A stretch of 64,000 nucleotides of DNA from Candidatus Omnitrophota bacterium (GTDB lineage Bacteria > Omnitrophota > Gorgyraeia > Gygaellales > Profunditerraquicolaceae): assembly GCA_041650495.1 (NCBI GenBank), contig JBAZLB010000004.1:39281-103280 (forward strand), in the 5' to 3' direction. A program made the translations under genes and the position numbers. This document shows, piece by piece, positions 1-44,233 of this stretch. The notes under the pieces were generated by a model. It made no database searches. It was not told where the DNA came from and saw nothing but the letters and a program-made list of their open reading frames with translations. How positions within the stretch are numbered: the stretch's first letter is position 1; each line of letters opens with the position of its first letter.

Positions 1-1194
1 TTGATTATTGATAAGGAATTCATTGCCTTTTCTTTGCAATAACGGCCCCTGCTTCATGGCAAGAGGATTGATTATCACAAAGCCATTTGATTCTTCATCA
101 TATAAATTTCCCCCCTTGTTTAACTTTACCCTGAGTGTATAAAAATCACTTTTAAAAATACCAGGATCCCAAATTCCACTTACGGTTATCTTTTGATTAG
201 GGATAAGCGCAACGAATTTATTTTTTGCATATACTAAGCGGTCATTCTTATCTAGCAGTTCAAATGTCAACTTGCCTGTTTCCCTATTTTTACCTGAATT
301 AATGACTTTAACTGAGAATCTTACTTTCTCTCTCTGGTAATATGCGGCAAATTCCGTATTCACATCGTATAAAACAAGGCCATATGAAAGATAATCTATG
401 ACCCGGCGTATAGTTTTTTGAGCAATATCAGACTGCGGATCCAATGGATGGAGCCTGCCTGAAGCTCCTATAAGACACCATTTATTGGGTATGTCTTTTA
501 TATTATTTATGTATGGATTTAGCCAGCTTTTTACTAGGCATATAGATGGGTTATTCTTTTTATCGGATATATTTCTTAAATAAAAAAAATCGCGCGCCGG
601 AATCCTATAGGGGAATACGTTCCCCTTCGAAGGTATAAGAGGGGATACGCCCATACTCGTCGTAACGGTTAAGCCCACGGTTGCTAAATCAGGGGTTTCG
701 TAATACTTAATCCCTAAAGGGGCTAGAAATTCTTTGTATGAATTTATCGTATCTATTACCTCCCACCGGCCGGAGATCTTAACTACGGGTTTCCAAAACG
801 GCTTGCCAGCCACATTGAATAATCCTCCCCCATTAAAAAGATAGTCCTTTATTGCGCCAGCCGCTTCATAGGGGAAAGTTTCACCATAGGGCAAGATTAA
901 AACATCAAAATTATGCGGATTAAAATATTCTTTATTGTTTAAATCAGATATCGTTAAAAACTTTATAGAAGCACAGGGCGTAAGAAGCTGGGATAGCCAT
1001 TCTGGAGTGAAAGAATCCGGGATGCCACAAGCAGGGAATCCTTCTTCTTTAAATATCCCGATTATATATTTTGATTCACCAAAAAGAGGGCGTCGATCAT
1101 CAGCGTATACCGTATTGCCATCAAACTGAAAGACAGCAATGAAATAACCCGCTAAAAGAATAACCCGGAGAAAATTAAATATCATTTTCTGCAT
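1..1194 (-). CDS. Secreted hypothetical protein, partial (start in window, C-terminus beyond the left edge)
   Basis: My own translation of the minus strand gives an open frame from the ATG at 1194-1192 to position 1 with no stop (MQKMIFNFLRVILLAGYFIAVFQFDGNTVYADD...). The N-terminus is hydrophobic and signal-peptide-like. The ORF is absent from the track because it runs off the edge. It sits tightly packed in front of the GT4 gene. Confidence 0.5.
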   Translation of the reverse strand, partial: MQKMIFNFLRVILLAGYFIAVFQFDGNTVYADDRRPLFGESKYIIGIFKEEGFPACGIPDSFTPEWLSQLLTPCASIKFLTISDLNNKEYFNPHNFDVLILPYGETFPYEAAGAIKDYLFNGGGLFNVAGKPFWKPVVKISGRWEVIDTINSYKEFLAPLGIKYYETPDLATVGLTVTTSMGVSPLIPSKGNVFPYRIPARDFFYLRNISDKKNNPSICLVKSWLNPYINNIKDIPNKWCLIGASGRLHPLDPQSDIAQKTIRRVIDYLSYGLVLYDVNTEFAAYYQREKVRFSVKVINSGKNRETGKLTFELLDKNDRLVYAKNKFVALIPNQKITVSGIWDPGIFKSDFYTLRVKLNKGGNLYDEESNGFVIINPLAMKQGPLLQRKGNEFLINNQ

Positions 1195-1207
1195 ACAGGA
1201 TCAACCG

Positions 1208-2389
1208 TTACCGTTTCTGTTGTATCCTTATTGCTTCGTTATATGCCTTTAATAAATTAGCGGCGGTGACATCCCAGTTATATTCTTCTTCAGCACGTTT
1301 ACGTGCCAACTTGCCTAATTCATTACGTAGTCTTTCGTTATCAAGCAATGTAACAATCCCCGCCGCTAACGAATCTGCATCCCCTGGGATGGTCAATAAA
1401 CCGGCCCCTTTCAACATATGCGCAGCCTCTCCAACGTCACTGGCGACAATAGCCTTACCGGAAGCCATATACTCGGCAATTTTAAGAGGACTCTTACATA
1501 AGACCGCTTCATTCCTTTCAAAACATGCAACACATATATCTGCAGATCCGACATAATGCGGAACTTCCTCATGTGGGACTGGCCCCGTAAAGATTATCCG
1601 GTCTTCTAACTTCAACTGAGAAACAAACTTCTTTAAAACCGGTGCCTGATAGCCGTCGCCTACGATCATAAAAAATACTTCCCGCTTATGCTTATACACA
1701 AGATTATATGCTGCCCGTATAAAAAGGTCTACATATTGGCCTCCGTGGAGCTGGCCTAAATATAAAACCAACGGTTTTCTAATAGAGAACCGTTTTTTTA
1801 TACTATCCCCGTATAAAGCAGGATTGAATTTCTCACCGTCTGCTCCTACCCGTGCCTTAAAAATGCGTTTCTCATCAATGCCTCTTTTTTTACATTCCTG
1901 CTCAAGGCGTACACTTGCTACCGATATAGTATCGACAACCTTTGGGATCATTATCTCTAAAAAATTTATGTACGCGCGTATGAAATTCCTAAATATACCG
2001 CCGGATGTAGAAAGTTCAAATATCTTTGTTTCCCAATCATCCCAATCATAATGCAAAGGTTTACTGGCAAGTCTGGCCGATACTATTGCCGGTACAGCCG
2101 CATGATAAAAGCATTTTTGAATATGGATAATCTCAGCCCATCGCGCTATATCCCATAACTTGATTATATTAAAAATCAAATGGTGGATACCCGCCCTCCT
2201 GCAGAAAGGAATAGCCACCACGCGCGGGCATATTTCCTTAAGAGAAGCCGGCTCTCTTGAAAGGGGAAAATATATTATTTTTACCGTATGGCCTTTTTGC
2301 GCAAACGTCTTCGCAAGGGCAACAACGCGCACAGTCCATGGCTCAAAAGAAGAATATATATCATGGGGATGGACCATCGCAATATTCAT
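1208..2389 (-). CDS. Glycosyltransferase family 4 (GT-B, retaining type)
   Basis: 393 aa. The C-terminal region IAEYMASGKAIVASDVGE...LLTIPGDADSLAAGIVTLL is a typical GT4 nucleotide-sugar-binding block (E-x7-E neighbourhood). Confidence 0.7.
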   Translation of the reverse strand: MNIAMVHPHDIYSSFEPWTVRVVALAKTFAQKGHTVKIIYFPLSREPASLKEICPRVVAIPFCRRAGIHHLIFNIIKLWDIARWAEIIHIQKCFYHAAVPAIVSARLASKPLHYDWDDWETKIFELSTSGGIFRNFIRAYINFLEIMIPKVVDTISVASVRLEQECKKRGIDEKRIFKARVGADGEKFNPALYGDSIKKRFSIRKPLVLYLGQLHGGQYVDLFIRAAYNLVYKHKREVFFMIVGDGYQAPVLKKFVSQLKLEDRIIFTGPVPHEEVPHYVGSADICVACFERNEAVLCKSPLKIAEYMASGKAIVASDVGEAAHMLKGAGLLTIPGDADSLAAGIVTLLDNERLRNELGKLARKRAEEEYNWDVTAANLLKAYNEAIRIQQKR

Positions 2390-2501
2390 TTAGCCCCCGG
2401 GAAATATGACTATCTTTCTAATTTTTTTCATTAAAAAAAGGCATACATCTACGGGAATTACAACCAATACCAAAATGACCGTAAAGAAAATCTTAGAACG
2501 G

Positions 2502-3458
2502 CTATAGAGAGAGCGCATCGATTATCTTCCTGATCTGTTTTGCCATGACTTTATTAAAACGCGGCCCCGGGTGCCCGTCCAGGGTTCTATCATTAAGCGC
2601 ATCGTTATCAAGCAATTCATAGGCGTTAAAATAGTAGACATTCTTCTGGAAACAATACTGCTTTAACCAAAGGGCATATTTTTCAATACGGTAATCAACA
2701 TCGTAAACGATTACAATTATTTTTGTTTTGTCCTGAGAGATACCCGAAAGAAGCTTATCCAAAGGATACTGTATATATTCCCGGAAGCGGGTTTGTGATA
2801 AATCCCGATATATCCGCGCATATACCTGGCTAAGGGCATACTGAATAATTCTGTTTTTGCTAAAAATCCCGGTAAACGGCCACACAACATAACGATAATC
2901 CGCTTCTATTTGCATTTTTATTTTACGTTCAATAATTGCAGAGGCACAAATATCATTTTTTAAAAAAATCTCAAAAATGATTAACCGGGGCTGGTTTATT
3001 TCGGAAGATTTTAGAAAATACCTACTTACGGAATCACAAACATTATTCCCTGGTAATGAGAGATTTATATAACGCCTTTTTAAATCGCCCTGGTTTAAGA
3101 AATAGGAAATTGTTTCGGCATCACCCGCTCCTACACCGAAAAAGAATGAATCCCCCAATAAAACGACTGGATTCTTATCTTTCTTTGATACTTCAAATAT
3201 ATCCCGTGCACCCAAGGCATTAATATGAGCGTAGAAACGACGGCCAGATGTATCTGTATACGGTATTTCTCCCCCCGGAGAAAACCCCGCCACACAAAAG
3301 TCGTCTTTATTTGGAGTGTAATGAATAGGTTCGATTTTTTTTAAATCGGGAAATCTATATTTTATAAGAAGTTGACATATCAACAGAACCTGGAGTAATA
3401 CACATCCCCCTATGCCTACCAATATAAAAAACCCTATTCTTCTTACAAATGCACTCAT
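2502..3458 (-). CDS. SGNH/GDSL-family hydrolase with N-terminal membrane anchor
   Basis: N-terminal TM helix. Block I is VVLLGDSFFFG and C-terminal block V is LDGHPGPRFNKVMAKQI (DxxH). 318 aa. Confidence 0.6.
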   Translation of the reverse strand: MSAFVRRIGFFILVGIGGCVLLQVLLICQLLIKYRFPDLKKIEPIHYTPNKDDFCVAGFSPGGEIPYTDTSGRRFYAHINALGARDIFEVSKKDKNPVVLLGDSFFFGVGAGDAETISYFLNQGDLKRRYINLSLPGNNVCDSVSRYFLKSSEINQPRLIIFEIFLKNDICASAIIERKIKMQIEADYRYVVWPFTGIFSKNRIIQYALSQVYARIYRDLSQTRFREYIQYPLDKLLSGISQDKTKIIVIVYDVDYRIEKYALWLKQYCFQKNVYYFNAYELLDNDALNDRTLDGHPGPRFNKVMAKQIRKIIDALSL

Positions 3459-3533
3459 TGTACTTGCTAACTCGCTTATTGCTAATCAGCTATTCGATCG
3501 CCATATGGCAGATTTATTTTATTGCCAGGCATG

Positions 3534-5261
3534 TTAACGCAAAAATCTGTAAAGCCCGAACCGGTAGAGATTATCAAGATTTGTTATCAATGTTTGATGA
3601 TTATCGCAATGCTCACAATGTTCATCGTATAATTTAACACCGTTTAAAAAAGTATATCCTTTATTTTCTTTAAGAAATTTTGCTTTTATCCTATACCTGC
3701 GATATTCCCGGGAATTCCAGAGTTCTTTAAAAGACTGCTTGTTCAAATCGCCAACAGTCCTTAAATGACAGCACATACTCACGTCATAGAGGGCCGGTAT
3801 AAGACAAAAATACCATCCTATCGTACATCCCTCTTGAAGAAAAATATCCTTCGACCATGCCCCCGTGTCTTTGTCGTAATGCTCAAGTTGAAACATAATA
3901 TTATCAACGAAATCTATGCCATTCTCCATGAATATTTTAGTCGCAATCGGTAAGTCCTTCTTAATAACTTCTATTTCCCGTTCGCTCAGTTTAAGGGATT
4001 GATTATTATCGTCTAGCCTAATAAGATAGAAGCGGGCAGCATCCGCTCCTATTTCCGCATCAACCTTAGCCATTTCAATAAGTTCGTGATAATTAAGGGC
4101 ATGGATAACATGCGTCATTTTCAGGCGGGGCTCTAATTTACCCTGTTCCTTTCTGATCCGCACCAATGTTTTAAGATTTACTATTATAGTATTAAATGTC
4201 GCCTCGGTGCCGATTGTGGTCACCTGGGCATATGTAGCAGACGTGCCGGATGGAAAGCTGCAATAAATTTCCTTTACCCCCAAATCTATTAATTCCCTTG
4301 ATTCTTTTTCATGAATCAATGAACCGTTTGTAAAAAAAAGTACACCAATATCCTTACTCCGAGCGTATCTAAGCATATCAAAGAATTTATCATAAAGAAG
4401 CGGTTCCCCGTCTCCTTGCAAGATAATACCATCGACCTTAAGCTCTGCAGAATCGTCAATAATGCTTTTAAACTTTTCTAGGCTAAATTTTCGCTCCAAG
4501 AATCCTTCTCTGTGCTGTATAGCTGGGTTATGCACAAAACAATGCCTGCATTGTATATTGCAGCGATGATAAGGATCAAAGACTATTGTCTGCGGCCCTA
4601 TAAAGGCATGCTCGGCGATGACCCCTAATAATCTTACCAGGTCTCTATCTGAAACTTTTTCTCTTTGCATGTGAAACTGAATGATCTGTAAGATTTCAAT
4701 TAACTCCTCATCGCATAAAAATAACTCGATGGAGGCGTTTTCTATTGCCTCCTGTATCCCCCGAATATATTCTATGAAATTGTGGATTATTTTATCAACC
4801 GGAAAGACATTAAAAGACTCCTCCAGAGACCGACAATCAACCCCTTTAAGACGCATACACAGTTTTACCATCTCATTGATACAGAAGAAGTTATGGCGAG
4901 TTACGCCTATCTTAAAAACAACATTTTTATCTAGCACCGCCATTGATTCCAATCGTTTTATTGTCTCATCGAAGGTACCGTCTTTTCCAATTATTCTTTC
5001 ATGCAGTTCATCAAAATGACCAAAGATACATTCATTATCCTGTTTCAACCCGGGATCAAAAGGCAAAAGATTCATTAATATTTCTAACTCGGTGCGATTT
5101 GCCATTATTATATTCATGTATTCATTGAGTCTTTTAGGGTCATTCAGGCGGACAACCACATCATCCAGTCTTTTCAAGATAGTCCGCAGGCTAAGCCTCC
5201 TGGTTCTTATGGATTCTTTACCCCGCACTGTAATCTTTCTCTCCCAAACATTCTTCCTCAT
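3534..5261 (-). CDS. Radical SAM protein, family B (SPASM-like C-terminus) with ~230-aa N-terminal extension
   Basis: CxxxCxxC at HRCNIQCRHCF. The GDGEPLL SAM motif is present. The C-terminal Cys-rich block GCTIGWYFCLIPALYDVSMCCHL...EHCEHCDNHQ matches the paralogs at 21179..22636 and 17294..18502. Confidence 0.75.
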   Translation of the reverse strand: MRKNVWERKITVRGKESIRTRRLSLRTILKRLDDVVVRLNDPKRLNEYMNIIMANRTELEILMNLLPFDPGLKQDNECIFGHFDELHERIIGKDGTFDETIKRLESMAVLDKNVVFKIGVTRHNFFCINEMVKLCMRLKGVDCRSLEESFNVFPVDKIIHNFIEYIRGIQEAIENASIELFLCDEELIEILQIIQFHMQREKVSDRDLVRLLGVIAEHAFIGPQTIVFDPYHRCNIQCRHCFVHNPAIQHREGFLERKFSLEKFKSIIDDSAELKVDGIILQGDGEPLLYDKFFDMLRYARSKDIGVLFFTNGSLIHEKESRELIDLGVKEIYCSFPSGTSATYAQVTTIGTEATFNTIIVNLKTLVRIRKEQGKLEPRLKMTHVIHALNYHELIEMAKVDAEIGADAARFYLIRLDDNNQSLKLSEREIEVIKKDLPIATKIFMENGIDFVDNIMFQLEHYDKDTGAWSKDIFLQEGCTIGWYFCLIPALYDVSMCCHLRTVGDLNKQSFKELWNSREYRRYRIKAKFLKENKGYTFLNGVKLYDEHCEHCDNHQTLITNLDNLYRFGLYRFLR

Positions 5262-7806
5262 AACAACAATTAATAATCTGATGGCAATTTTTATTACATT
5301 TTTTCACTTCTTCCCTGATTTTCTCCGCTGTCTCGGAAAACCATATGTCATAAATATCCCTCTCAAGAACATTCCCGATTGAATCCATCTCTTCGCAGAA
5401 CGTAACATTACCTTTCTCATTGATGCTCAGGAATGAATATCCCATATTGCAGGTGATATGCTTACGGATATATTGATTCGGGTCCGCATAGTACTTTTTA
5501 TAATTCACCAGTTGAGAAACGGGATTGCCTAACTTGTGGTATCCGGACATCTTCATTTCAATTAATTTATCAATGATGTCGTGTAACTGCTGCTTGTCCT
5601 GAGGCCATAACGTTTTACTTCCCGGCCTTTTATACCACCCTGCATCTTTTTCATACCCGCGCGGCTGGATCAAGCCTAAGAAATTTATAAGATTAATCTT
5701 TTTATTCCCTTGGACCCATGTTAAGAGCGGAATAACATCATCCAAATTCTCTTGCAGTATTATCATAAGTAAATTTATTTCTGTTTGCGGGGCATAGCGA
5801 TGCAACAATTCTATTGCCTCCATGACTTTAACATAAGACCCGTCTACGCCCCTTATGAAATCATGCCGCTCCTTATTGAGACTATCTAAAGAAAGCGCGA
5901 TTGTCCGTAACCCCGATTCCCCTATAGATTGCGCCTGCTTTTTATCAATTAAATAGCCATTAGAACATACCGCGGTCAAAAACCCGTTATCATTAGCAAA
6001 TCTAATTAAGTCAGTTAAGCCTTCTTTTAAAAACGGTTCTCCGCCGGCAAAATTTATCTGGCAATGGTTATCGGCTACGCGTTTAAAAGCAAGCAAAAAA
6101 TCTTTCCATTGCCCTGATGTAAGTTCTTCATTGCTATCCTGCTTCCAGATTTGACACATCTTACATCTAAAATTACACCTATATACTATTCCTAATGCAC
6201 AAAAACGCGGCCTTATGATTTCCAGGGCTTCTTGGCGGGATAAATGCTTACTATAAGAACCGGAAGACACGCACGCCAGATCGTAACGGCGCTTCTCCCG
6301 CATCGCTTTATCTAGCTCTCTTTTAAGTTCTTCCCGACGGGGGGCCATCTTTAGGGCTTCCTTCAATTCTCTTATAGCTTCATCAAATTGATGCTGTTTT
6401 AAGAATATGCCGCTTAAGCCGATATACGAATCTATTGATCCGGAGGCTATCTGCCTGAAATCTAAATACAGCTGCTTTGCCTCTTCATACCGATTATATT
6501 GTTTATATATACTCGCTAAGCCGTTCAACGCGCTGATATCTCCGGGATCAATATCCGACATTCTCTTATAGGCTGCTTCAGCTCTATCATAGTCTTTTCT
6601 CTCATAACAAAGTTCCGCTAAACAACCTAACGCTGGCTTACTTCTGCTGTCTATCTTAAGAATATCTTCACATAGCTGTTCTGAGGAATCGTATAGTTTG
6701 TTTTCTTTATAGCAGGCCGCAAGCAGTTCCATTGTTTTTATATCTCCGGGAGAGAGGACTAATATTCTTTCATATAAACCTGCGGCTTTGCCGGGTAGCG
6801 TTTGGCTATAATATAAATCAGCGAGCTGCTTAAGCAATGTTATACAAGCAGGCTCTAAACGTAATCCATGATGATAAAGTGCGATTGCTTTATCGTAACC
6901 GCCGTGTCTCTGATAGGCCTGAGCTAATTTCTCCAGCCATACCAATCTCTCCCCGCCCTTGTTAAAGAACGCCTTAATTAATCTTTCGGCTTCTTTAAGC
7001 CGCTGCTGCTGCAATAAATAATTACCTACTGCAGAGATACCCTCGGTAGTGCTCCTGTCAAGCCTCAACCCTTTGCGATAAACCTTGATGCCTTGGCTTG
7101 TCTTGCCCATTTTCACTAAGGCACCGCCGTGTCTCTGATAGGCCTGAGCTAATTTCTCCAGCCATACCAATCTCTCCCCGCCCTTGTTAAAGAACGCCTT
7201 AATTAATCTTTCGGCTTCTTTAAGCCGCTGCTGCTCTAATAAATAATTACCTACTGTAGAGATACCCTCGGTAGTGCTCCTGTCAAGCCTCAACCCTTTG
7301 CGATAAACCTTGATGCCTTGGCTTGTCTTGCCCATTTTCACTAAGGCACCGGCTAACCCTTTATACACAGGACTTCCTGATGGCATGGTCTTTAATGCCT
7401 TGCGAAACATGTTTTTAGCTTCTTTATATTGCCCAGCCATATCGAGTAAAACCCCTAAATTATACTGGGCCCACCCATGATTTTTGTTTATTAGCAATAT
7501 TTCCTGGCTTAAACGTAGAGAATCGGAATATTGTCCTGTTTGTCTGGAAATATCTGCCAAGCCATACAAGGCTGTTTCGTTTTTCGTATCAAGTGCAATG
7601 GCTTCCTTAAAATACTCTGCGGCCTCTGTATATCTGCTTTGTTCTCTTAAAGTTTGCCCCATAAAAATAAAAACATCGGGATCAGAAGATCCTTTGCTAA
7701 GGATTTCTTTAAAACATTTAACGGCCTCAGTATACTCTCCGGCAAAAAAATGCGACCTACCTCTTGTTTTAAGATCGGAATGGGTTGTTTTGGTTTCTAG
7801 TGGCAT
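5218..7806 (-). CDS. TPR-repeat (~520 aa) fused to family-A radical SAM domain
   Basis: 862 aa. The N-terminal half is TPR-like helical repeats with a duplicated 75-aa segment. The C-terminal half carries FCALGIVYRCNFRCKMCQIW (CxxxCxxC), FAGGEPFL and the terminal motif CNKNCHQIINC shared with the five stand-alone family-A paralogs. Confidence 0.8.
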   Translation of the reverse strand: MPLETKTTHSDLKTRGRSHFFAGEYTEAVKCFKEILSKGSSDPDVFIFMGQTLREQSRYTEAAEYFKEAIALDTKNETALYGLADISRQTGQYSDSLRLSQEILLINKNHGWAQYNLGVLLDMAGQYKEAKNMFRKALKTMPSGSPVYKGLAGALVKMGKTSQGIKVYRKGLRLDRSTTEGISTVGNYLLEQQRLKEAERLIKAFFNKGGERLVWLEKLAQAYQRHGGALVKMGKTSQGIKVYRKGLRLDRSTTEGISAVGNYLLQQQRLKEAERLIKAFFNKGGERLVWLEKLAQAYQRHGGYDKAIALYHHGLRLEPACITLLKQLADLYYSQTLPGKAAGLYERILVLSPGDIKTMELLAACYKENKLYDSSEQLCEDILKIDSRSKPALGCLAELCYERKDYDRAEAAYKRMSDIDPGDISALNGLASIYKQYNRYEEAKQLYLDFRQIASGSIDSYIGLSGIFLKQHQFDEAIRELKEALKMAPRREELKRELDKAMREKRRYDLACVSSGSYSKHLSRQEALEIIRPRFCALGIVYRCNFRCKMCQIWKQDSNEELTSGQWKDFLLAFKRVADNHCQINFAGGEPFLKEGLTDLIRFANDNGFLTAVCSNGYLIDKKQAQSIGESGLRTIALSLDSLNKERHDFIRGVDGSYVKVMEAIELLHRYAPQTEINLLMIILQENLDDVIPLLTWVQGNKKINLINFLGLIQPRGYEKDAGWYKRPGSKTLWPQDKQQLHDIIDKLIEMKMSGYHKLGNPVSQLVNYKKYYADPNQYIRKHITCNMGYSFLSINEKGNVTFCEEMDSIGNVLERDIYDIWFSETAEKIREEVKKCNKNCHQIINCCYEEECLGEKDYSAG
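6901..7350. repeat. Direct tandem duplication, 2 x 225 bp, in-frame, inside the TPR region of the TPR-rSAM gene
   Basis: Sequence 6901-7125 is repeated at 7126-7350 with only about 2 mismatches (ctgcaataaa/ctctaataaa; ctgcagag/ctgtagag). In the protein, ...GGALVKMGKTSQGIKVYRKGLRLDRSTTEGIS.VGNYLL.QQRLKEAERLIKAFFNKGGERLVWLEKLAQAYQRHGG appears twice. Confidence 0.85.
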
Positions 7807-7820: not shown

Positions 7821-8828
7821 TTAATAAATGTACACTTCTGAAGGGTCAAAATTACAATTGACCATGGATTGACAATTCCGTTTGCACTGCGCTATCTTTT
7901 CCCGTATCATTTCCGCTTTTGAGGAATTCCACACGGTGTTAATATCGTCATATTTAATGTTTCCGATCGGTTCCATGTAAAAACATATCCTTATTTCTCC
8001 CGTAGGAGTTATGTTAATGGCCTGGGTGTCAATATGGCACTTTTTCTGCTTAACAAAGTCATTGGGATTATGAAAATATGCTTTAAATACCTGCAGTTGG
8101 GGCAAAGAATTTCCAAGCTTGTTAAACCCGGATTCTTTCATCTTGATAAGCCCGTTCATAATTTTGTCAACTTTTTTAAGGTCTATAGGCCATAAGGAAC
8201 TATACCGGCTGTCAGTATACCAGTGCAAATCTTCTGGTGTACTAAACGGTTGTGTGATAGCCTGAAATCCCATTCCGTCTATCTTGTCATTCTCCTGTAT
8301 CCACCTGACAATATCCACAAGTTCATCAAGGTTTTCATTAGAAATAACGGTGCATATGCCTATCTTTACATCGCTGCTGTATTTATCCAGAAGCTCGATA
8401 GCCCTCATAACCTTCTGATATGCCCCTCTAACACCGCGGAGAGAATCATGGCGGTCTTCCCTGAGACTGTCTAAAGATATATTCACAGTGGTAACGCCTG
8501 AAGCCGCTATGTTCTCTGCCATTGTCTCATCGATAAGGAAGGCGTTAGTAGCAAGTAACGTAACAAAGCCATGTTTATGGGCATAGTTGATTAATTCCAA
8601 TGTTTCCGCACGTGCCAATGGCTCTCCTCCTGCAAAGTTTATTTGGGATTTATCTTTCATAAGAGAACGTAACGAATCAATAAAATACCTCCAGCGCTCT
8701 ATCGTTGGCTCAAGAGGATCCCGGGCCTTGATATCAGATTTCCACTTATAACACATACGACATCGCAAGAAGCAGCTTTCCAATAACGCTATACAGCAAT
8801 AAACAGGAGCTGATATATTTTTTTGCAT
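7821..8828 (-). CDS. Radical SAM protein, family A (MoaA/twitch-like, ~335 aa)
   Basis: N-terminal LLESCFLRCRMCYKW (CxxxCxxC at residues ~17-24), FAGGEPLA, and C-terminal Cys motif CKRNCQSMVNC. Confidence 0.8.
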   Translation of the reverse strand: MQKNISAPVYCCIALLESCFLRCRMCYKWKSDIKARDPLEPTIERWRYFIDSLRSLMKDKSQINFAGGEPLARAETLELINYAHKHGFVTLLATNAFLIDETMAENIAASGVTTVNISLDSLREDRHDSLRGVRGAYQKVMRAIELLDKYSSDVKIGICTVISNENLDELVDIVRWIQENDKIDGMGFQAITQPFSTPEDLHWYTDSRYSSLWPIDLKKVDKIMNGLIKMKESGFNKLGNSLPQLQVFKAYFHNPNDFVKQKKCHIDTQAINITPTGEIRICFYMEPIGNIKYDDINTVWNSSKAEMIREKIAQCKRNCQSMVNCNFDPSEVYIY

Positions 8829-11373: not shown

Positions 11374-12381
11374 CTATGTGACAGGTTCACAAATTTTAGG
11401 GAAATCTTTTTGGAATTCATCAAAACAATTTATCAGGTGGTGGCAATTCTTTGTACAGCCGGCGATATCATTTCTTACCTTACCTGCTTTTTCTGAGTAC
11501 CAAACGTCTATAAGGCGGTCGCTCTTAATGTTGCCTATGCGTTCAAAATCATAACATAAATAGATATCCCCGACGGAACTGACCAAAACGCACCTATCAA
11601 GATTACACTGCCTTCTTTTCAAGAACTTCTTGGGATTTCTGTAATATGACTGAAAGGCCAGCAGTTGGCTAACGGGATTCCCGATCTTAAAGCCTTTGTT
11701 TTTTAGACGGATAAGCTCTGCGATGATCTGTATAGTCCTGGCTGGATTCTTAGGCCAGATAAACCCTAAATCACCATCCCACCAATTATCTTCGGGAAAA
11801 GTATTATTTGGCTGCATCGCTGCCATAAAATTTATCGAACCGATCCTTTTATCCTGATGAGCCCATTCAACCAAATCTAAGATCGTGTCTTGATTAATTT
11901 CATAAAATACGCAACACAGGTTTATATAGAGACCCTCGCAATAGGTATGAAGATAGGCAATGGCATCCATGGCCCTGCGATACACGCCAGTAACTCCCCT
12001 TAAATGATCGTGGACCTCTTCTTTTATACTATCCAGCGATATGCTTATCGACTTTAGGCCTGAGCCTGCTATCTTGCGAGCCATCTCTTCATCAATAAGA
12101 TACCCGTTGGAAGCTATCGAGGTATTAAAGCCCTTATCGACACTAAAACGGATAACATCTAATATCCCGTCAAACATTAACGCCTCCCCGCCTCCAAGAT
12201 CCAATTCAAATGGAAAATCAACCATCTGAGCTAGATCAGAAATACATTGCTTCCAATGTACAAGAGAGGGGGCCTGAGAGTAGTTCTTGACATAAATGTC
12301 ATCTTTCCATTTATAGCACATTTTACATCGCAGCATACATTTGTCGGTAATACCAAAACAACAAAACCCCGGTTTAATCAT
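11374..12381 (-). CDS. Radical SAM protein, family A
   Basis: FCCFGITDKCMLRCKMCYKW, LGGGEALM, C-terminal CTKNCHHLINC. Confidence 0.8.
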   Translation of the reverse strand: MIKPGFCCFGITDKCMLRCKMCYKWKDDIYVKNYSQAPSLVHWKQCISDLAQMVDFPFELDLGGGEALMFDGILDVIRFSVDKGFNTSIASNGYLIDEEMARKIAGSGLKSISISLDSIKEEVHDHLRGVTGVYRRAMDAIAYLHTYCEGLYINLCCVFYEINQDTILDLVEWAHQDKRIGSINFMAAMQPNNTFPEDNWWDGDLGFIWPKNPARTIQIIAELIRLKNKGFKIGNPVSQLLAFQSYYRNPKKFLKRRQCNLDRCVLVSSVGDIYLCYDFERIGNIKSDRLIDVWYSEKAGKVRNDIAGCTKNCHHLINCFDEFQKDFPKICEPVT

Positions 12382-12410: not shown

Positions 12411-13457
12411 CTATATGGAGAATGGCAGATCCCCTTCAAAGAAACAATTGAGAAGAAAATGGCAATTCTGCCTGCAGTTTCTCACCGCTTCACGCGCCAG
12501 TTTAGCTTTATGAGAATACCACAAATATTCTATGCTATCTTTCGTTATATTGCCTAATTTATCTTGTTGGAAACAGATAAACACATCACCGACAGAGCTA
12601 ACATGGATCGCCCTGGATAAATTACACTCTGAAATTTTTATAAACCGCTCAGGGCATATAAAATACCTCCTGAAAGCCTTAAGCTGCGACAGATGATTAA
12701 CGATTTTCCATCCCTTTCTTTTAAGCTCTATCAAACGGCCTATCAGATCATAAACCTGTTTTATCTCCTGGGGCCAGAGATGACTGAAATCTTTTTGATA
12801 CCACCTGGAATCCATACCGGTATTATTCGGCTGCATCACTGCCATAAAATAAATCCAGTCCAAGCGGTTATCTCTTTGCACGCGCTCAGTTAATTCCAGG
12901 ATATCCCCGGCACTTAGGCTGCTTATCACACAACAGATTCCTTTTTGCAGCTCAGGACAGTATGTATCTAAATAGTCGACCGCCAGCATAACTCTTTTAT
13001 AAACCCCCTCAACGCCCCTTAAGTAATCATGGGTTGTATCTTTAAAGCTGTCTAAAGATAAATTTATGGTTGTAAGCCCCGATTCGGCTATTGCCTTTGC
13101 AAGCGGCTCGTCAATCAAGTAGGCATTTGTAGCAATATTGGTCTTCAACCCTATGTTACCGGCAAATCTTACTAGTTCTAACAACTCTTCCATTAAAAAA
13201 GGCTCACCCCCGCCGAAATTAACCGTAAAACCACTGCCCGCTAATTTACGGATAGAGGCGATTGCATTTCTCCAGTCAGTAACCGTAGGATGGTTATTTC
13301 TCGGGGGCAACGCTGACACATCATCTTTCCATTTAAAGCACATCCGGCACTTTAAAGTGCACCGTTCAGTTACGCTCAGGCAGCAAAAATTTGGCCTTGT
13401 CTGCTGACCGGGGAGATTTTCTAGCCATTTAACCGTATTTATGAATAACTTTCGCAC
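12411..13457 (-). CDS. Radical SAM protein, family A
   Basis: CCLSVTERCTLKCRMCFKW, FGGGEPFLM, C-terminal CRQNCHFLLNCFFEGD. Confidence 0.8.
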   Translation of the reverse strand: MRKLFINTVKWLENLPGQQTRPNFCCLSVTERCTLKCRMCFKWKDDVSALPPRNNHPTVTDWRNAIASIRKLAGSGFTVNFGGGEPFLMEELLELVRFAGNIGLKTNIATNAYLIDEPLAKAIAESGLTTINLSLDSFKDTTHDYLRGVEGVYKRVMLAVDYLDTYCPELQKGICCVISSLSAGDILELTERVQRDNRLDWIYFMAVMQPNNTGMDSRWYQKDFSHLWPQEIKQVYDLIGRLIELKRKGWKIVNHLSQLKAFRRYFICPERFIKISECNLSRAIHVSSVGDVFICFQQDKLGNITKDSIEYLWYSHKAKLAREAVRNCRQNCHFLLNCFFEGDLPFSI

Positions 13458-14465: not shown

Positions 14466-16199
14466 TTATCGTAATATCTTCAACAAAGAGATAAAAGCCC
14501 GCTGCGCCAAATCACTCTCATACTTCAATTGAACTTCCGGGACAGATTTTATTGCACCCGTATCTGCAAAAAGATACTGTAGATCGCCTTTTAATCTCTG
14601 CCGGGTTATTACAATAAGATAATCGTTTTTAGTTACCGCTTGGAGAAAATCCGGGGATGATCTCCAAAAAGTCTCTACCCGGTATTTTTTCTGCAAGAAA
14701 ACCCTGATTAAATGCCCCATACGCATACTCATATCAGCGACCCACATCCCACGGAACCGCGGCGACTCTCCATCAAAAATAATTATACCCGGGACATAGT
14801 TTAAACCGGAATTATTATCATAATCTATGGTTTCGGCAATATGCCTAGCTGCCTCAATAAAATTTGATTTGACAGGCCGATGTGCGATAATCCCTTCTTC
14901 TAAATTCTCAAGGTAATGACGCCGAGAATAAGAAAAATACGAATAAAACAGTACAGTTATTATGCCCAAGGTCACTATGCTGTATTCCTTCCATTGCTGC
15001 TGTTTTAAAAAACGCTCAAGAAAAAAACCTGAACTTAAGGCAAAAAGAGGCAAAAGCGGCACTATAAAACTTCCCCATTTGATATGAAACAGCGTCAAAA
15101 GTATATAGCTCACACAAAACCATACCCCAAAAGATAACCGGGTTTGAAAGGATAACGCCCTGTCCTTCAATAGCCAAACTAAAGATAAGGCCCCGAGCAG
15201 GAAAAATAACGGGGAGGTGTAGTACATTATTTCCATGATGTAGAACAAAAAAGTATTTATGTTTATCCCCGCGTTAATTGTCTGGGTGCACGGACAAAAG
15301 GCATCTTGTGAGGCAAAAAGAAAAAGCTCTTTCCTCCCGTCAGCGACACTGCCGACCCAATTGCTTGATTTGAATACCAGGCTTTTACATGCCTCTATAA
15401 ATCCGTCCTTAAGATTCAAAAAAACATGCGCATAATTATTATCAAAATAAAGACCGAAAAATATCGCTGCAAGAAATAAAAAAATTACCGCATCCAATAT
15501 ATGCCTTGCCCTTAACTTAGGATCCAACAAAACAATCCCCGCGTGTAAACAGAATAAAGGGATAAAGAATACCAGATAAAGTCCTCCCGATAACACGCCG
15601 CAGATAAAAATAAAAGCTAAGAACACGGAGCGCAATACGGCCGGCATATACTTCCAGCGGAGAAAAATAAGTATAGAAATAAGCACAAAGAACGTAACAA
15701 GCAATGCAGAGTTTGTTTTCCGGGAAAGGCCGACCATGCCGGGGTAAAATGATAAGATAAGGGCTGACCTTATTCCTATTTGCTCACTAAAAATAACCTT
15801 GCCGAATATATATGTTGCAACAAGTACCAGCATAAACTGCAAAAATAAAACAATATTGATTAAAAATAATTTATGGCCGCCCGAAAGAGGCGCCATAATA
15901 GGAAAGGCAACGGCTAAAGATGCCAAATTAAAGTTAATTGCGGAGAAGGCATAGCCAAAATGGCTTACTTTTAGGAAATCCATGGTCTTAAATAATTTTT
16001 CCGCCGCAGACAAACGGTCATTAGCGATCATATCGCTATATTCAAATGCATTCTCTTCATGCCATACCGAATAACAGCCGTGCTGTATATAACCATCTTT
16101 TGAAAACCAGAAGATGTTATTGCAGAAAAGAAATAATATGAAAACAGCTGCGCTGATTCTTCTGTCGTGCAGGATTTGCTTAACGCTATTATGCGGCAT
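14466..16199 (-). CDS. Polytopic integral membrane protein; possible GT-C-type (ArnT/PMT-like) glycosyltransferase or polymerase
   Basis: 577 aa with 10 or more hydrophobic helices throughout and a C-terminal soluble region. No catalytic motif was recognised. The call rests only on architecture and context (glycan genes). Confidence 0.35.
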   Translation of the reverse strand: MPHNSVKQILHDRRISAAVFILFLFCNNIFWFSKDGYIQHGCYSVWHEENAFEYSDMIANDRLSAAEKLFKTMDFLKVSHFGYAFSAINFNLASLAVAFPIMAPLSGGHKLFLINIVLFLQFMLVLVATYIFGKVIFSEQIGIRSALILSFYPGMVGLSRKTNSALLVTFFVLISILIFLRWKYMPAVLRSVFLAFIFICGVLSGGLYLVFFIPLFCLHAGIVLLDPKLRARHILDAVIFLFLAAIFFGLYFDNNYAHVFLNLKDGFIEACKSLVFKSSNWVGSVADGRKELFLFASQDAFCPCTQTINAGININTFLFYIMEIMYYTSPLFFLLGALSLVWLLKDRALSFQTRLSFGVWFCVSYILLTLFHIKWGSFIVPLLPLFALSSGFFLERFLKQQQWKEYSIVTLGIITVLFYSYFSYSRRHYLENLEEGIIAHRPVKSNFIEAARHIAETIDYDNNSGLNYVPGIIIFDGESPRFRGMWVADMSMRMGHLIRVFLQKKYRVETFWRSSPDFLQAVTKNDYLIVITRQRLKGDLQYLFADTGAIKSVPEVQLKYESDLAQRAFISLLKILR

Positions 16200-16231: not shown

Positions 16232-17278
16232 TCATATAACCTGGAACGGATAATCACCTTCAAAAAAACAATTTAAAAGATGATGGCAGTTTCTTTTGCA
16301 ATTTATTATATTATTTCTAACGGCGCATGCCTTCTTAGAATACCAGGCCATAGCCAGGTCATCATGCATGATATTGCCTATCCTTTCCCACTCATAGCAT
16401 ATGTATATATTGCCAATTGCATCCACATGGACTGCGCGATCCAAATTACAGGCTGTCTTCTTTACGAATCTATCGGGGGAATCAAAATATTGTTTAAACG
16501 CTTCCAGCTGACAAAATTGGTTATTTATCTTAGACCCCTGTTTTTTCATCCCGATTAAACGATCTATAACGGTTGTTATCCGTGCGGTATCGTCAGGCCA
16601 TAAATACTGGAATTCTTCCCGGTACCAGCGAGGATTAGGCCTGGTATTATTCGGCTGCATCGCCGCCATAAAATAAACCCATTTAATCCGCGGATGCTTA
16701 TTCACCCATTCCGCAACCGATACAACTTCATCCATATTAATCTTGTATATGACACAACAGATAATAATTTCAAACTCTCCCGGGCAATACTTATCGAGAT
16801 ACTCAATGGCATCCATGACTTTATGGTATACCCCCGGCACTCCACGTAAATAATCATGCGTAGACGGATTCATGCTATCCAGCGAAATATTAATGCTCGA
16901 CAGCCCGGACCTTCCTATTCTGCGAGCCATAGGTTCATCAATCAAGCAAGCGTTGCTGGCGATGTTAGTACGCAAACCGTTCTCTGCAGCAAAATGCACG
17001 ATATCCAATAGCCCTTCTAATAGAAGCGCTTCCCCCCCGCCAAAGTTTATAAGAAAATCCCTGCCCGCTATTGAGCGCAACGACGATATAGCTCTTTTCC
17101 ATAAGGTTATATCCGGTTTCGGTATGTCCCTGGGGACATTAAGGTCGGGTCTCCACTTTTGACACATTTTGCAGCGTAAAAAACACTCATCGACTACGCC
17201 AAAACAACAGAAACCAGGCCTTAATGTAGCCCGGAAATCCATCTTGACATCCTCGCTGCTATTGATTTGTCCGCTCAT
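16232..17278 (-). CDS. Radical SAM protein, family A
   Basis: FCCFGVVDECFLRCKMCQKW, FGGGEALLL, C-terminal CKRNCHHLLNCFFEGD. This is the closest paralog of 12411..13457. Confidence 0.8.
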   Translation of the reverse strand: MSGQINSSEDVKMDFRATLRPGFCCFGVVDECFLRCKMCQKWRPDLNVPRDIPKPDITLWKRAISSLRSIAGRDFLINFGGGEALLLEGLLDIVHFAAENGLRTNIASNACLIDEPMARRIGRSGLSSINISLDSMNPSTHDYLRGVPGVYHKVMDAIEYLDKYCPGEFEIIICCVIYKINMDEVVSVAEWVNKHPRIKWVYFMAAMQPNNTRPNPRWYREEFQYLWPDDTARITTVIDRLIGMKKQGSKINNQFCQLEAFKQYFDSPDRFVKKTACNLDRAVHVDAIGNIYICYEWERIGNIMHDDLAMAWYSKKACAVRNNIINCKRNCHHLLNCFFEGDYPFQVI

Positions 17279-25534: not shown

Positions 25535-26317
25535 TCAGATTTGTTTTAAAGCATCCTTCTCTTTTTTCGTGAATATGTAATGGCCCAGCCATATGCTCGC
25601 CAAGCTAAATCCAAACGCAAACAACCACATAACGCTGTCTCCTTTTGAGCCGTTATAAAGTATAGCGCGATAAAGAAGGGTATAACAGGTAGCTGGATTT
25701 GCAATCATAATAACCTGATGCCCCTTTGAGATACTTTCTAAAGGGTAAAATATGGGGGTCAACCAAAATAAAAACATTAAACCAATATTCAATAACTGCG
25801 CTAAATCCTTATAATAGAGATTACCGATGCTTACCATGAGCGATATGCCCAATGTAAAAACAAAGTGGAGCAGCAGGACGAGCGGCAATAATGCTAAGGA
25901 ATTTATGATTCTGGTATTACATAGAATAAAAACGGGCAAGAGACCTATAAAACCAACTAAAAAATTTACAAAGTTTGCTAAAACCACCGAGAGGGGTATT
26001 GCCTCATTCATAATAACGAACTGATTTAATACGGCACTATTATTCTTAATGGAAACTGCCGCTTCTGATAATGAGTTTGCAAAGAAAGACCAGGCCAAGA
26101 GAGCACTCAATATAAAAAGGGGGAAATTACTTATCCGGGTAGGCATTATTTGTGTGAAAACGAAGTTAATGGCACACATAATAAGCAGGGGATTAAGAAC
26201 TGCCCAAAAAATACCTATGGTAGAGCCAATATATTTATCACTTAAATTACGCTGCACCAGGCTCTTAATTACGTTTTTCTGTGCGCTTATCTTAACAAGT
26301 TTATCTCGTAGAGTCAT
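25535..26317 (-). CDS. ABC-2 type transporter permease (Wzm/TagG-like)
   Basis: 260 aa with 6 predicted TM helices in the ABC-2 arrangement. It lies directly upstream of the Wzt-like ATPase. Confidence 0.7.
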   Translation of the reverse strand: MTLRDKLVKISAQKNVIKSLVQRNLSDKYIGSTIGIFWAVLNPLLIMCAINFVFTQIMPTRISNFPLFILSALLAWSFFANSLSEAAVSIKNNSAVLNQFVIMNEAIPLSVVLANFVNFLVGFIGLLPVFILCNTRIINSLALLPLVLLLHFVFTLGISLMVSIGNLYYKDLAQLLNIGLMFLFWLTPIFYPLESISKGHQVIMIANPATCYTLLYRAILYNGSKGDSVMWLFAFGFSLASIWLGHYIFTKKEKDALKQI

Positions 26318-27015
26318 TGGTAAATATGAAAATACTCCTTTAAAATAGCGGATGCAATATTCTCCGCTAAAAGCCGATTTCCTTTTTTAGTACAATGCCC
26401 GAAGTTTCCTGCGAACATATCAACAAAATACTCTCTGTAGCTTTCTCTTTTTATTGCCTTCTGAAAGATCCCCTCATTATCTACAAAGATGATACCGTCT
26501 TGCTGTCCAGCAAAGATCCCCTTTAATGATGCCAAACTCCGAAGCGGATACTGGACACAAACCAATTGTATTTTATTTTTACTTAATATTCCCCTGATCT
26601 TATGGTAATTGCTATATGTCTTTGTCGTAATATTATGCCTAAAAAGTTTATCAACTTTTTTGGCATATTTACTCGCTACAGTATCCATCCCCATTTCATT
26701 GTATACTACAGCCAGCCCCCCATACGCATAATCTTGCAACGGATCTACCTTGGCCGCCTGGTTAAATGTCTCTATAGCCAAAGTAAACTTCCTTTCGGAA
26801 ACATAGTTTTCGCCTAATACAACATACGCCCAATAGTCTCTCGGATCCAGCTCTATGGCTTGTTTTAGCGACACCTCGGATGCCGGATATTTCCCCTGGT
26901 ATCTATAACACTGCCCCAACAAAAAATACGCTTTGCCGTTTTCCGGATTTAAGGCAACGGCTTTCTTCAATGCCTCTTCGGCGTCTGGATAATTATAATT
27001 ATAGATAAACGCCAT
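26314..27015 (-). CDS. C-terminal part of a split SGNH-TPR protein (TPR repeats plus SGNH block V)
   Basis: TPR-like repeats (AEEALKKAVALNPENGKAYFLLGQCY...). The C-terminus carries FVDMFAGNFGHCTKKGNRLLAENIA, which resembles SGNH block V (DxxH). The frame stays open for ~19 codons upstream of its ATG into the preceding ORF region. Confidence 0.5.
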   Translation of the reverse strand: MAFIYNYNYPDAEEALKKAVALNPENGKAYFLLGQCYRYQGKYPASEVSLKQAIELDPRDYWAYVVLGENYVSERKFTLAIETFNQAAKVDPLQDYAYGGLAVVYNEMGMDTVASKYAKKVDKLFRHNITTKTYSNYHKIRGILSKNKIQLVCVQYPLRSLASLKGIFAGQQDGIIFVDNEGIFQKAIKRESYREYFVDMFAGNFGHCTKKGNRLLAENIASAILKEYFHIYQ

Positions 27016-27068: not shown

Positions 27069-28121
27069 TTAATAGGCTTCTATTTCAGTAATCTTGCCTC
27101 TGTCCCTATAAATCCGTACCAGCTCAAGATATGGCCGAGGATCTTCCGGGCCACTCTCTATAGCTTTCTGCAGTGGCTCCTCCGCAGGAAAATATCTGCC
27201 TTGGTCGATATAGCATCTCCCCAATAGAAAATATGCCATATCATTTTTCGGATTCAACACAAGAGCCCTTTTAAGGGCATCCTCCGCTTCACGGTATCGA
27301 CCCTGGGAATGATAAAGTTGAGCTAACTCAATATATATTACATCGTAACCCGGCCTCAGTATTAGAGCTTTTTGCAGCAGCCTTTCATATTGGATATAGT
27401 CTCCTAGGTCGCGATATCCCCGCCCTAAACCAATATATTCTTCTGCCTGCTCTTTGTTGACATCTTGTGCGCCGCGCATAGAATCTCCATAACTAAAATA
27501 ATTGCCGCGCTTAATATAACTCTTACGTGGATCACTGAGGCCGGAAATGGGCGGAAACCCGTTTATCTCTTGCACGCTGGGGATCCGACAAGCCAGTTTT
27601 TTCGCCATAACATGCTCCCTCAACAGTATCAATAATTTATAGACCTTCAAAGACTGCAGATAAGAAATTATTTTATCTTCCGATGTTCGTTGGTTCACAA
27701 TATGCCTGGACCTATCGTTGATACCAAGCATCGCCACCACTATATCTGGTTTATACTTCGCAATGTTTTCTTCTAAATGCAAAGCTACATATGAAGTATC
27801 AATATCAGGAATGCCTTTATTAATTACACTAAATCTTAATCCTTTATTATTTTGATTTAATACAACTTCGAGTTGACTGGGGTAGCAACTTTCGCCGCCT
27901 ATCGCATACGCAGTCGTCGATTCCCCAACGCACATAATGCGATATGAGCTTTTCTGCTGCAGAGAAATCCTGTTTCTTCCTTCCTGTAAAGATGAAAATA
28001 TAAAACCTGCTAAACGCATCCCGGCCTCCAGAAAGACAACGCCAAGGCATATCCCTGCGATAATAAGTGCTGTCTTCTGGCAGAGAGATATAGCGGACGT
28101 ATGAGTATTATTACAGCGCAT
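27069..28121 (-). CDS. N-terminal part of a split SGNH-TPR protein (TM anchor, SGNH blocks I-III, TPR repeats)
   Basis: TM helix. Block I is IMCVGESTTAY, block III is VAMLGINDRS, followed by TPR repeats (YIGLGRGYRDLGDYIQYERLLQKALILRP...). It stops at 27069-27071, whereas the downstream TPR/SGNH-block-V ORF is open in another frame from about 27072. This suggests a frameshift (true pseudogene, sequencing error or recoding). Confidence 0.5.
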   Translation of the reverse strand: MRCNNTHTSAISLCQKTALIIAGICLGVVFLEAGMRLAGFIFSSLQEGRNRISLQQKSSYRIMCVGESTTAYAIGGESCYPSQLEVVLNQNNKGLRFSVINKGIPDIDTSYVALHLEENIAKYKPDIVVAMLGINDRSRHIVNQRTSEDKIISYLQSLKVYKLLILLREHVMAKKLACRIPSVQEINGFPPISGLSDPRKSYIKRGNYFSYGDSMRGAQDVNKEQAEEYIGLGRGYRDLGDYIQYERLLQKALILRPGYDVIYIELAQLYHSQGRYREAEDALKRALVLNPKNDMAYFLLGRCYIDQGRYFPAEEPLQKAIESGPEDPRPYLELVRIYRDRGKITEIEAY

Positions 28122-33528: not shown

Positions 33529-33529
33529 T

Positions 33530-34201: not shown

Positions 34202-34203
34202 AA

Positions 34204-38317: not shown

Positions 38318-38338
38318 TTTATTGTCCCTTCAGAAATC

Positions 38339-38419
38339 AAAAACCACCACCTGCATTCATATGCAAGATGGCGGCCCGACCATCTTAAAAATAACCTCTG
38401 GAGGCAGCTATCTCCAGAC
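38339..38419 (-). terminator. Conserved two-hairpin element, copy B; terminator downstream of the tRNA-Val/tRNA-Asp unit
   Basis: Same architecture as copy A, with an identical 19-nt core (gatggcggcccgaccatc on the plus strand). The flanking hairpins are conserved in structure with compensatory changes (UCUGGAG/CUCCAGA; CCGCCAUCUUGC/GCAGGUGGUGG), followed by UUUUUGAUUU on the minus strand. Confidence 0.65.
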
Positions 38420-38702
38420 CACTTATTATCTTAATCGTTGCAGATATCATTATACATCAAACAGGCACTTTTACAATCTCCTTGTTATCTTAGATTACAA
38501 GGCGTTTGTTTGTTCCTCATCAACCCTGTTATTCTTTGATATCAAAGGGGGTAAGAACTTATTTTCCGATTATTTTCTATAAAATCTTACGGCCAAATTG
38601 TGGCCGGCCGGGGACCAAAAATATGCTAAGATGCCGCCTATCCCCATGATTATCTACAAACAGGAAATCCCCGAAATTGCTTACGGGGATTAGTGTTATA
38701 TA

Positions 38703-38778: not shown

Positions 38779-38862
38779 GAACAGCAGGATATAGATTTTA
38801 AGCTAAAGTCCTGTTTTTTGCAACAGTTATTTACCCCTAGCTTAAACACTCAAAAATTTCTA

Positions 38863-38937: not shown

Positions 38938-38950
38938 GGAAATATTCTAT

Positions 38951-38979: not shown

Positions 38980-38980
38980 T

Positions 38981-44229: not shown

Positions 44230-44233
44230 ATGA

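Follow-up and report, generated by a model that had tools for sequence, protein, structure and literature searches.

In a gene of an uncultured Candidatus Omnitrophota bacterium that encodes a predicted radical SAM/SPASM enzyme with an N-terminal arm of tetratricopeptide repeats (TPR), a segment of 225 nt is present twice in direct succession. We regard this most probably as a microhomology-mediated tandem duplication, which added two TPR hairpins and a seam of seven residues to the arm and whose copy number differs between assemblies. The following features of the analysed stretch of 64 kb (in the following termed the window) are concerned:

5218..7806, minus strand: host gene, 862 aa, with N-terminal TPR arm and radical SAM/SPASM part (ORF translation, Pfam)
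6898..7122, minus strand: copy A of the 225-nt unit, the C-terminal copy (aa 229-303), which has the differences at 7011, 7012 and 7032
7123..7347, minus strand: copy B of the 225-nt unit, the N-terminal copy (aa 154-228), the same as the single copy in a contig from ENA

The array was reported by Tandem Repeats Finder with a period of 225 bp and 2.0 copies at 6898-7351 (98% matches, no indels, score 887), and a repeat search returned 6898-7122 and 7123-7347 as directly abutting segments of 99% identity without a spacer. Base-by-base comparison of copies A and B revealed three mismatches (7011 G/C, 7012 C/T and 7032 C/T against 7236, 7237 and 7257). An identity of 222 in 225 bases greatly exceeds what chance would produce. 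A 43-nt probe over the variable part matched at these two copies only and in none of 100 shuffles. A preliminary description of this DNA had mentioned about two substitutions, of which the near-identity stands while the count has to be raised to three. Its register of 6901-7125 and 7126-7350 is equally valid, falling within a four-base ambiguity (ACCG) at the ends of the array. On the minus strand, the unit corresponds to 75 amino acids and starts at codon phase 0. Since 225 nt are 75 codons, the reading frame is preserved, and both repeat finding and codon phase confirm what had been described as an in-frame tandem duplication in the TPR part of the gene. Three codons differ between the copies: ACA/GCA replaces T by A, GAG/CAG replaces E by Q, and TTA/TTG is synonymous (Leu), so that two of the three differences change an amino acid. 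Within the 64-kb window the array is the sole tandem repeat, and no short repeat tract is found anywhere in it. The segment with the A variant occurs nowhere else in the window, which means that a third copy as donor for gene conversion was not found there.

The identity between the copies continues for four bases past the array, with the result that the tetranucleotide ACCG is found three times in register:

6898..6901, no strand assigned: ACCG microhomology arm at the left end of the array
7123..7126, no strand assigned: ACCG microhomology arm at the novel junction, ...AAGGC ACCG CCGTG...
7348..7351, no strand assigned: ACCG microhomology arm directly beyond the right end of the array

Flanking microhomology of at least four bases is expected by chance with p = 0.0156. 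In the one-copy allele from ENA, ACCG stands on either side of the unit. The tandem junction is diagnosed by the sequences AAGGCACCGCCGTG and CACTAAGGCACCGCCGTGTCTC, and the one-copy contig lacks 'AAGGC ACCG CCGTG'. Abutting copies, a flanking ACCG arm and a single-copy counterpart are the features by which microhomology-mediated tandem duplications are recognized. The segment between two ACCG tetranucleotides would thus have been doubled in head-to-tail orientation, and strand slippage or template switching during replication is the probable cause. An origin by slippage or illegitimate recombination had been proposed before and is supported by the 4-nt microhomology. Unequal crossing-over between homologous TPR units was considered as well and rejected because the unit comprises 75 and not 68 aa and its breakpoints are 7 residues off the TPR register. 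Hairpin-forming inverted repeats are represented by two weak pairs of 10-11 nt close to the breakpoints, which we judged irrelevant.

The host protein is identical over 862 of 862 residues to NCBI entry MFA5090190.1, annotated as 'MAG: tetratricopeptide repeat protein [Candidatus Omnitrophota bacterium]'. Its domains are located as follows:

6265..7782, minus strand: TPR arm, aa 9-514 (Pfam and AlphaFold2 models)
7102..7131, minus strand: seam, aa 226-235, GGALVKMGKT (AlphaFold2 two-copy model)
6154..6177, minus strand: radical SAM cluster motif C544-x3-C548-x2-C551, CNFRCKMC (translation)
5281..5451, minus strand: C-terminal Fe-S (auxiliary-cluster) domain of the SPASM type, aa 786-842 (match to PF13186 with 29.3 bits; cut-off 21.5)

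Judged by this motif and the profile matches, among them Radical_SAM (PF04055) with 75.4 bits against a cut-off of 29.5, the protein is a radical SAM/SPASM enzyme. C544, C548 and C551 are unchanged across an alignment of five family members. None of the named subfamilies (GeoRSP, NirJ, AhbD, PqqE, MoaA and others) reaches its curated NCBIfam cut-off; the best match, GeoRSP_rSAM, scores 98.4 bits against 400, and the rest also stay far under. The nearest solved structure is SkfB (E = 2.8e-11), matching over the core only. No signal peptide is seen in the first residues of the translated protein, and because of this and of the oxygen-sensitive Fe-S domains the enzyme is probably cytoplasmic. The gene is situated within a block of 11 radical SAM genes that adjoins a TagH/Wzt-type polymer exporter. 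A literature search on Omnitrophota with radical SAM retrieved nothing on the host gene, and searches under the run, assembly and protein accessions retrieved no papers.

Profiles above their curated cut-offs (TPR_2 with 146.5 bits against 27, TPR_19 with 131.7 and TPR_1 with 115.3 bits) together with the stacked hairpins of the structural models identify the arm as a TPR array. AlphaFold2 placed 28 helices in the two-copy form, corresponding to 14 hairpins and a capping helix, and 24 helices or 12 hairpins in the one-copy form, with a spacing of 34-35 residues and a pLDDT of about 90 outside the seam. By the duplication, the TPR solenoid gains two helix-turn-helix hairpins. Seven residues are left over at the junction, because the breakpoints are 7 residues out of the TPR register, and they are modelled as part of a long loop. 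In the model the seam is a 10-residue loop (226-235) between an A helix (209-225) and a B helix (236-246), where a normal TPR turn has 3-4 residues. The pLDDT is below 50 at residues 227-249, and the hairpin is irregular with 42 residues; the flanking helices are confident. The input alignment comprised five sequences, with few aligned partners for the second copy, and this may in part be responsible for the low pLDDT of the seam. The earlier statement that TPR units had been added is hence true for the gain of two hairpins but not for clean whole units, as 75 aa equal two hairpins of 34 aa plus 7. Arm length also varies within the family: the part ahead of the Cys motif measures 468 or 543 aa in the two forms described here, and relatives have 543, 573, 632 and 666 aa.

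The one-copy form was detected in ENA contig ERZ27247363 k141_822032 (172 kb), which aligns to window positions 1-47262 in three overlapping pieces. Outside the repeat there are no substitutions in 46,808 positions and one indel of a single base. This contig has one 225-nt unit, identical to copy B, and encodes a protein of 787 aa. The indel is a deletion in the window at about 27074, which disrupts another gene by frameshift; two guessed sequences of the truncated product were looked up and neither is on record. An exact look-up of the 862-aa protein gave no match in the contig index, though it is present in the protein collection. When genome contigs were scanned with the family alignment, nothing above 40% amino acid identity was found; most matches belonged to radical SAM paralogs that stand alone and lack the TPR arm, and a single one was a fusion. 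A scan of JGI metagenome contigs revealed nothing closer than 37%.

Support for the tandem junction also comes from raw reads. We set the prediction beforehand that a contig assembled from raw reads at k=31 should end 30 nt (k-1) inside the repeat, at window position 6927:

6898..6927, no strand assigned: first 30 nt of the unit, with the Logan contig end exactly at 6927

Logan contig SRR8542065_168957 (k=31, 18,627 bp) ends at this position as predicted. We found it by looking for an exact match to the 569-aa fragment that the prediction implies; the gene occupies locus positions 1-1710 there, and BLAST aligned locus positions 1-4710 to window 6927-2218 with 100% identity. From the stop at 6927 it follows that the reads of SRR8542065 contain the tandem junction. 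For k up to 114 there are no k-mers specific for the one-copy form, and the k=31 graph cannot separate a population with two copies only from a mixture. A second Logan contig end, predicted at 7322, was sought via the upstream gene, where only the ENA contig is on record. Taken together, the one-copy contig without substitutions over 46.8 kb and the break of the raw-read contig bear out the variation in repeat number that had been suggested, as a variation between assemblies.

As for the age of the duplication, the three differences in 225 bases between the copies have to be compared with none in 46,808 bases elsewhere. At the rate outside the repeat, two or more events within it have a probability of about 1e-4. 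For this reason the duplication should predate the split of the two genomes, and the designation as a very recent event was overstated. With three differences between the copies and no substitutions between the genomes elsewhere, the events most likely began with an older duplication, after which the copies diverged and, recently, part of the population lost one of them. The sequences thus make it more likely that the one-copy form is a reversion rather than the ancestral state. A pair of 225-nt direct repeats is unstable, since slippage or unequal recombination can delete one of them, and this matches the existence of a single-copy genome that is otherwise free of substitutions. A crossover in the identical stretch of 113 nt would yield exactly the B-type single copy that is observed. 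The argument on the order of events assumes a uniform rate and is based on two to three mutational events only; three differences could also have arisen quickly through mutagenic repair synthesis or through selection acting on the new copy.

Two explanations ascribe the difference between the assemblies to the assembly process. According to one, the duplication is fixed and was collapsed to one copy in the short-read assembly behind the ENA contig, in which case there would be no true variation in copy number. The absence of substitutions over 46.8 kb is what would be expected if the assemblies share a population or even a read set, and three differences between the copies mean that the duplication is not brand new. 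Moreover, iterative-k assemblers pass contigs from low to high k, and the unit is partly a repeat at k up to 113. We nevertheless consider such a collapse unlikely: the longest exact repeat is 113 nt, all k-mers of the two-copy allele are unique at k=119 and k=141, and assembling the one-copy contig takes k-mers that run from the left flank into the B-variant bases, 5 of them at k=119 and 27 at k=141. Reads from the two-copy allele alone cannot contain these, and a simple collapse does not account for the ENA contig. De Bruijn assemblers normally break contigs at an equal-depth loop, so here too a break would be expected instead of a clean skip within 172 kb. Should the ENA assembly, the NCBI MAG and SRR8542065 go back to the same reads, the difference may lie in an assembler that lost or retained one copy. 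According to the opposite explanation, the window itself is wrong, two strain variants three bases apart having been laid in tandem where the true gene has one copy. In favour of this, one copy is found in the only other long assembly of the genome, strain variation could be the source of the three differences, and the 1-base deletion relative to the ENA contig might hint at a lower assembly quality. Against this, the independent k=31 assembly of SRR8542065 stops 30 nt into the unit, indicating a second left-hand context in the reads; the 4 nt shared by junction and flanks are too few for a misjoin based on overlap; the unit has a length of exactly 75 codons in phase 0; and there is no other repeat or signature of misassembly within 64 kb. 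The probability of such an artefact, raised already in the preliminary description and made unlikely by the Logan contig break, is thus almost negligible.

Another explanation accepts both forms as real and sees in them a switch like that of contingency loci, reversible and under selection, in which an arm of 12 or 14 hairpins alters the binding or the site of action of the enzyme. Both lengths are present in genomes otherwise free of substitutions and have an open frame, this class of duplication reverts readily, relatives differ in arm length, and two of the three differences between the copies alter amino acids. But there are just two copies of a long unit, with neither a short tract nor an on/off frameshift, a third allele with three or more copies was not seen, and the probable cytoplasmic location would keep the enzyme away from selection by phages or predators. 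In addition, the instability of any tandem duplication accounts for both forms without selection. A switch of this kind is highly improbable, and the contingency-like length variation suggested earlier finds no support in two long copies that never switch the frame of a probably cytoplasmic enzyme. Equally slim are the chances that the two arm lengths are functionally distinct and maintained, so that a reversible insertion of 75 residues would change the reach or the partners of the TPR-tethered enzyme. If this were true, an enzyme assembly line beside a polymer exporter would have a microhomology duplication as its length switch.

Returning to a microhomology-mediated tandem duplication as the preferred reading, the case is an ordinary, well-known kind of length change. 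Microhomology tandem duplications have been reported with units of about 10-500 bp and arms down to 4 nt, and they revert more than 10 times as often as they form (10.64898/2026.02.28.708716). The repeat described here resembles them in the step from one to two copies, the head-to-tail arrangement, the short identical arms and the lack of a spacer. Its 225 bp are within the reported range, its 4-nt arm is the reported minimum, and the one-copy form coexists, as frequent reversion predicts. It differs in that the copies are already three bases apart, so that the Omnitrophota repeat is a retained rather than a transient duplication.

Solenoid repeat proteins (TPR, ankyrin, LRR) grow by tandem duplication of multi-repeat blocks. 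Likewise, a block of roughly two TPR hairpins was duplicated here within an existing array, and the arms of relatives differ in length, whereas the breakpoints lie at non-equivalent repeat positions and produce 75 instead of 68 aa with a 7-residue seam. Repeat numbers also vary in surface proteins of bacteria, for example the alpha C protein of group B streptococci or the M proteins. These share with the present case long, in-frame and near-identical DNA repeats, the copy number of which varies among close relatives, but they are exposed, many-copy and immune-selected, while here two copies are found in a probable cytoplasmic Fe-S enzyme. In the contingency loci of Neisseria, Haemophilus and Campylobacter, many units of 1-9 nt switch a gene on or off by changes of frame or promoter spacing. 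A copy number changeable by slippage is the only common property: the Omnitrophota gene has two 225-nt copies in place of many short units, it is in frame at both lengths, and neither frame nor promoter spacing is switched.

The knowledge of TPR proteins, radical SAM enzymes and repeat instability is left unchanged by this duplication. It offers a clean natural case of length change in a repeat protein, in which the duplication was kept until its copies diverged and has a one-copy counterpart in a genome that shows no substitutions elsewhere. For the annotation and comparison of MAGs it calls for caution, as one gene reads 787 or 862 aa depending on the assembly. The read-graph prediction, i.e. 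a contig end k-1 bases into the repeat, can be used for testing a duplication without access to the reads.

The preliminary description of a 225-bp tandem duplication at 6901-7350 is confirmed by our results, and its interpretation is partly supported. Tandem Repeats Finder detected a single array at 6898-7351 (period 225, 2.0 copies, 98% matches, no indels), the sole tandem repeat in the 64-kb window, and both a separate repeat search and the direct comparison of the copies agree with this. The match continues four bases beyond the second copy, placing ACCG at 6898, 7123 and 7348, and the earlier coordinates (6901-7125 and 7126-7350) are valid, being shifted only within this ambiguity. The near-identity of the copies holds as well, but direct comparison gives three base differences (7011 G/C, 7012 C/T and 7032 C/T) instead of about two; the longest exact repeat between them is 113 nt. 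The unit is in codon phase 0 and the copies encode residues 154-228 and 229-303, in which the three differences amount to T to A, a synonymous change in Leu, and E to Q. The neighbouring GC/CT difference at 7011-7012 lengthens a CTG run in copy A and may represent one templated event instead of two. The elements concerned are:

5218-7806, minus strand: host ORF of 862 aa (ORF list and translation)
6898-7122, within the host ORF: copy A
7123-7347, within the host ORF: copy B
aa 541-697 of the host protein: Radical_SAM domain (Pfam, 75.4 bits)
aa 786-842 of the host protein: SPASM domain (Pfam, 29.3 bits)

Strong TPR matches (Pfam) extend across roughly the first 500 residues of the host protein, and the CNFRCKMC motif is unchanged in an alignment of five family members. 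No NCBIfam subfamily came near its cut-off (best GeoRSP_rSAM, 98 bits against 400), and similarity to the nearest solved structures, SkfB, MoaA and BlsE, is confined to the radical SAM core. NCBI has an entry of identical sequence, MFA5090190.1, [quoted passage not shown], which is encoded on a 191,743-bp contig present also in JGI/IMG. The top database match is P0001, a one-copy form of 787 aa and thus exactly 75 residues shorter; the next-nearest relatives show 36-44% identity and come mostly from Omnitrophota MAGs.

P0001 is encoded on a 172-kb ENA contig (ERZ27247363 k141_822032), three overlapping pieces of which cover window positions 1-47262 with no mismatches outside the repeat and one 1-base gap near 27074. 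This contig carries one unit only, identical to copy B, so that all three differences belong to copy A. An otherwise substitution-free contig with a single unit supports the proposed variation in copy number; a "contingency-like" character of the length variation is not supported.

Both forms have to be weighed against assembly effects. If the one-copy contig were a collapse of the two-copy allele, it should be explicable from two-copy reads. However, since the longest exact repeat is 113 nt, no k-mer occurs twice in the two-copy allele at k=119 and k=141. In the one-copy contig, 5 (k=119) and 27 (k=141) k-mers run from the left flank into the B-variant bases, and the two-copy allele lacks them. 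De Bruijn assembly of pure two-copy reads should yield two copies or break, not a seamless one-copy path. We therefore infer that one-copy molecules are real and dominate the sample of the ENA contig, and regard a collapse as rather improbable. The opposite explanation, an assembly artefact in the window, was addressed by a prediction for k=31 de Bruijn contigs: a tandem junction gives the first all-unit k-mer two predecessors, and the left-flank contig should end at 6927 (6897 + 30). An exact-sequence look-up of translated window 5218-6927 (569 aa) found this fragment as the gene at the edge of Logan contig SRR8542065_168957 (18,627 bp), assembled from raw reads of run SRR8542065, and by BLAST the contig stops exactly at 6927. 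As this position was set before the look-up, it is very improbable that the contig ends there by chance, and the result counts strongly against an artefactual duplication, which is unlikely. Two-copy reads, alone or mixed with one-copy molecules, would give the same contig end, because up to k=114 the one-copy allele has no k-mer that the two-copy allele lacks.

The anatomy of the repeat matches microhomology-mediated tandem duplication, and the 225-nt duplication is a fresh example of a well-known type of event. Its copies are arranged head to tail without a spacer, and the one-copy allele has a 4-nt arm on either side of its unit that recurs at the junction (chance p = 0.0156), which supports the suggested origin by slippage or recombination. 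No significant hairpin-forming repeats were found at the breakpoints. In a survey of such duplications, units measured about 10-500 bp with arms down to four bases, and reversion was more than 10 times as frequent as formation (10.64898/2026.02.28.708716).

A "very recent" duplication, as had been assumed, is not supported by three differences in the unit against no substitutions in 46,808 nt between the one-copy and two-copy genomes outside the repeat; the term is apt only when measured against species divergence. At the 95% upper bound of the flanking rate, at least two mutational events in 225 nt have a probability of about 1e-4. Therefore, barring unusually fast mutation of the new copy, the duplication is considerably older than the split of the two genomes. 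The simpler history is that the duplication arose, that copies A and B accumulated differences and that a recent loss removed one of them; crossover or slippage inside the 113-nt identical stretch would delete the A-variant bases and leave exactly the B-type single copy seen.

The consequences for the protein were followed in structure models and in the length of the N-terminal TPR arm, counted as residues before the Cys motif in fusion proteins of the family:

Arm length and modelled arm structure
One-copy form: 468 aa; 24 helices, 12 hairpins; A-helix spacing 33-35 residues; pLDDT 85-95 over most of the arm, down to 69-76 near residues 200-220
Two-copy form: 543 aa; 28 helices, 14 hairpins; A-helices 42 residues apart at the seam; pLDDT about 90 at a distance from the repeat, dropping from about residue 200, 35-48 at 220-250, 55-70 over the second copy
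Relative P0004: 543 aa
Relative P0002: 573 aa
Relative P0003: 632 aa
Relative L002: 666 aa

Judging from these sequences, arm length evidently can tolerate change; the description of the arm as a docking domain is putative. In the two-copy model the seam, where the copies join, consists of a helix (209-225), a 10-residue loop (226-235, GGALVKMGKT) and a second helix (236-246). The unit starts four residues short of the end of an A-helix and ends inside an A-B turn. Its 75 aa are made up of two hairpins of 34 residues each and 7 residues left over, which rules out that two TPR units exchanged at equivalent positions. As modelled, the duplication adds no clean TPR units; a shallow alignment may be partly behind the low confidence at the seam.

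The host gene is part of a long minus-strand block (1208-28121), which contains:

11 radical SAM genes, 9 with SPASM and 2 with a B12-binding domain
three GDSL/SGNH hydrolase genes
a GT1 glycosyltransferase
an exporter made up of a 960-aa TagH/Wzt-like ABC ATPase and an ABC-2 permease
TPR proteins

None of the block proteins scanned reached a curated NCBIfam cut-off, and for a 577-aa protein amid the radical SAM genes (14466-16199, minus strand) neither Pfam nor NCBIfam gave any match. Stretches of 60-72% DNA identity (11753-12012, 12772-13031 and 16596-16858) are common to the radical SAM genes 11374-12381, 12411-13457 and 16232-17278, from which it follows that the block grew partly via whole-gene duplication. 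In the case of the radical SAM gene that lies directly upstream of the host gene (7821-8828, minus strand), the maximal ORF of 335 aa against a 265-aa call on identical ENA sequence is a start-site discrepancy only. Compared with the otherwise identical ENA contig, one G is missing at 27069-27080 (about 27074; AGCCGTATT against AGCCTATT), splitting a 568-aa GDSL-hydrolase and TPR gene into ORFs 27069-28121 and 26314-27015; either a genuine frameshift or an assembly error may explain this. Adjoining the radical SAM block, at 32314-46742, are a V/A-type ATPase operon, an MscS channel and genes for trehalose synthesis (Glyco_transf_20, Trehalose_PPase, TreT), and window 34067-38731 matches a Logan contig of SRR8542065 at 100%.
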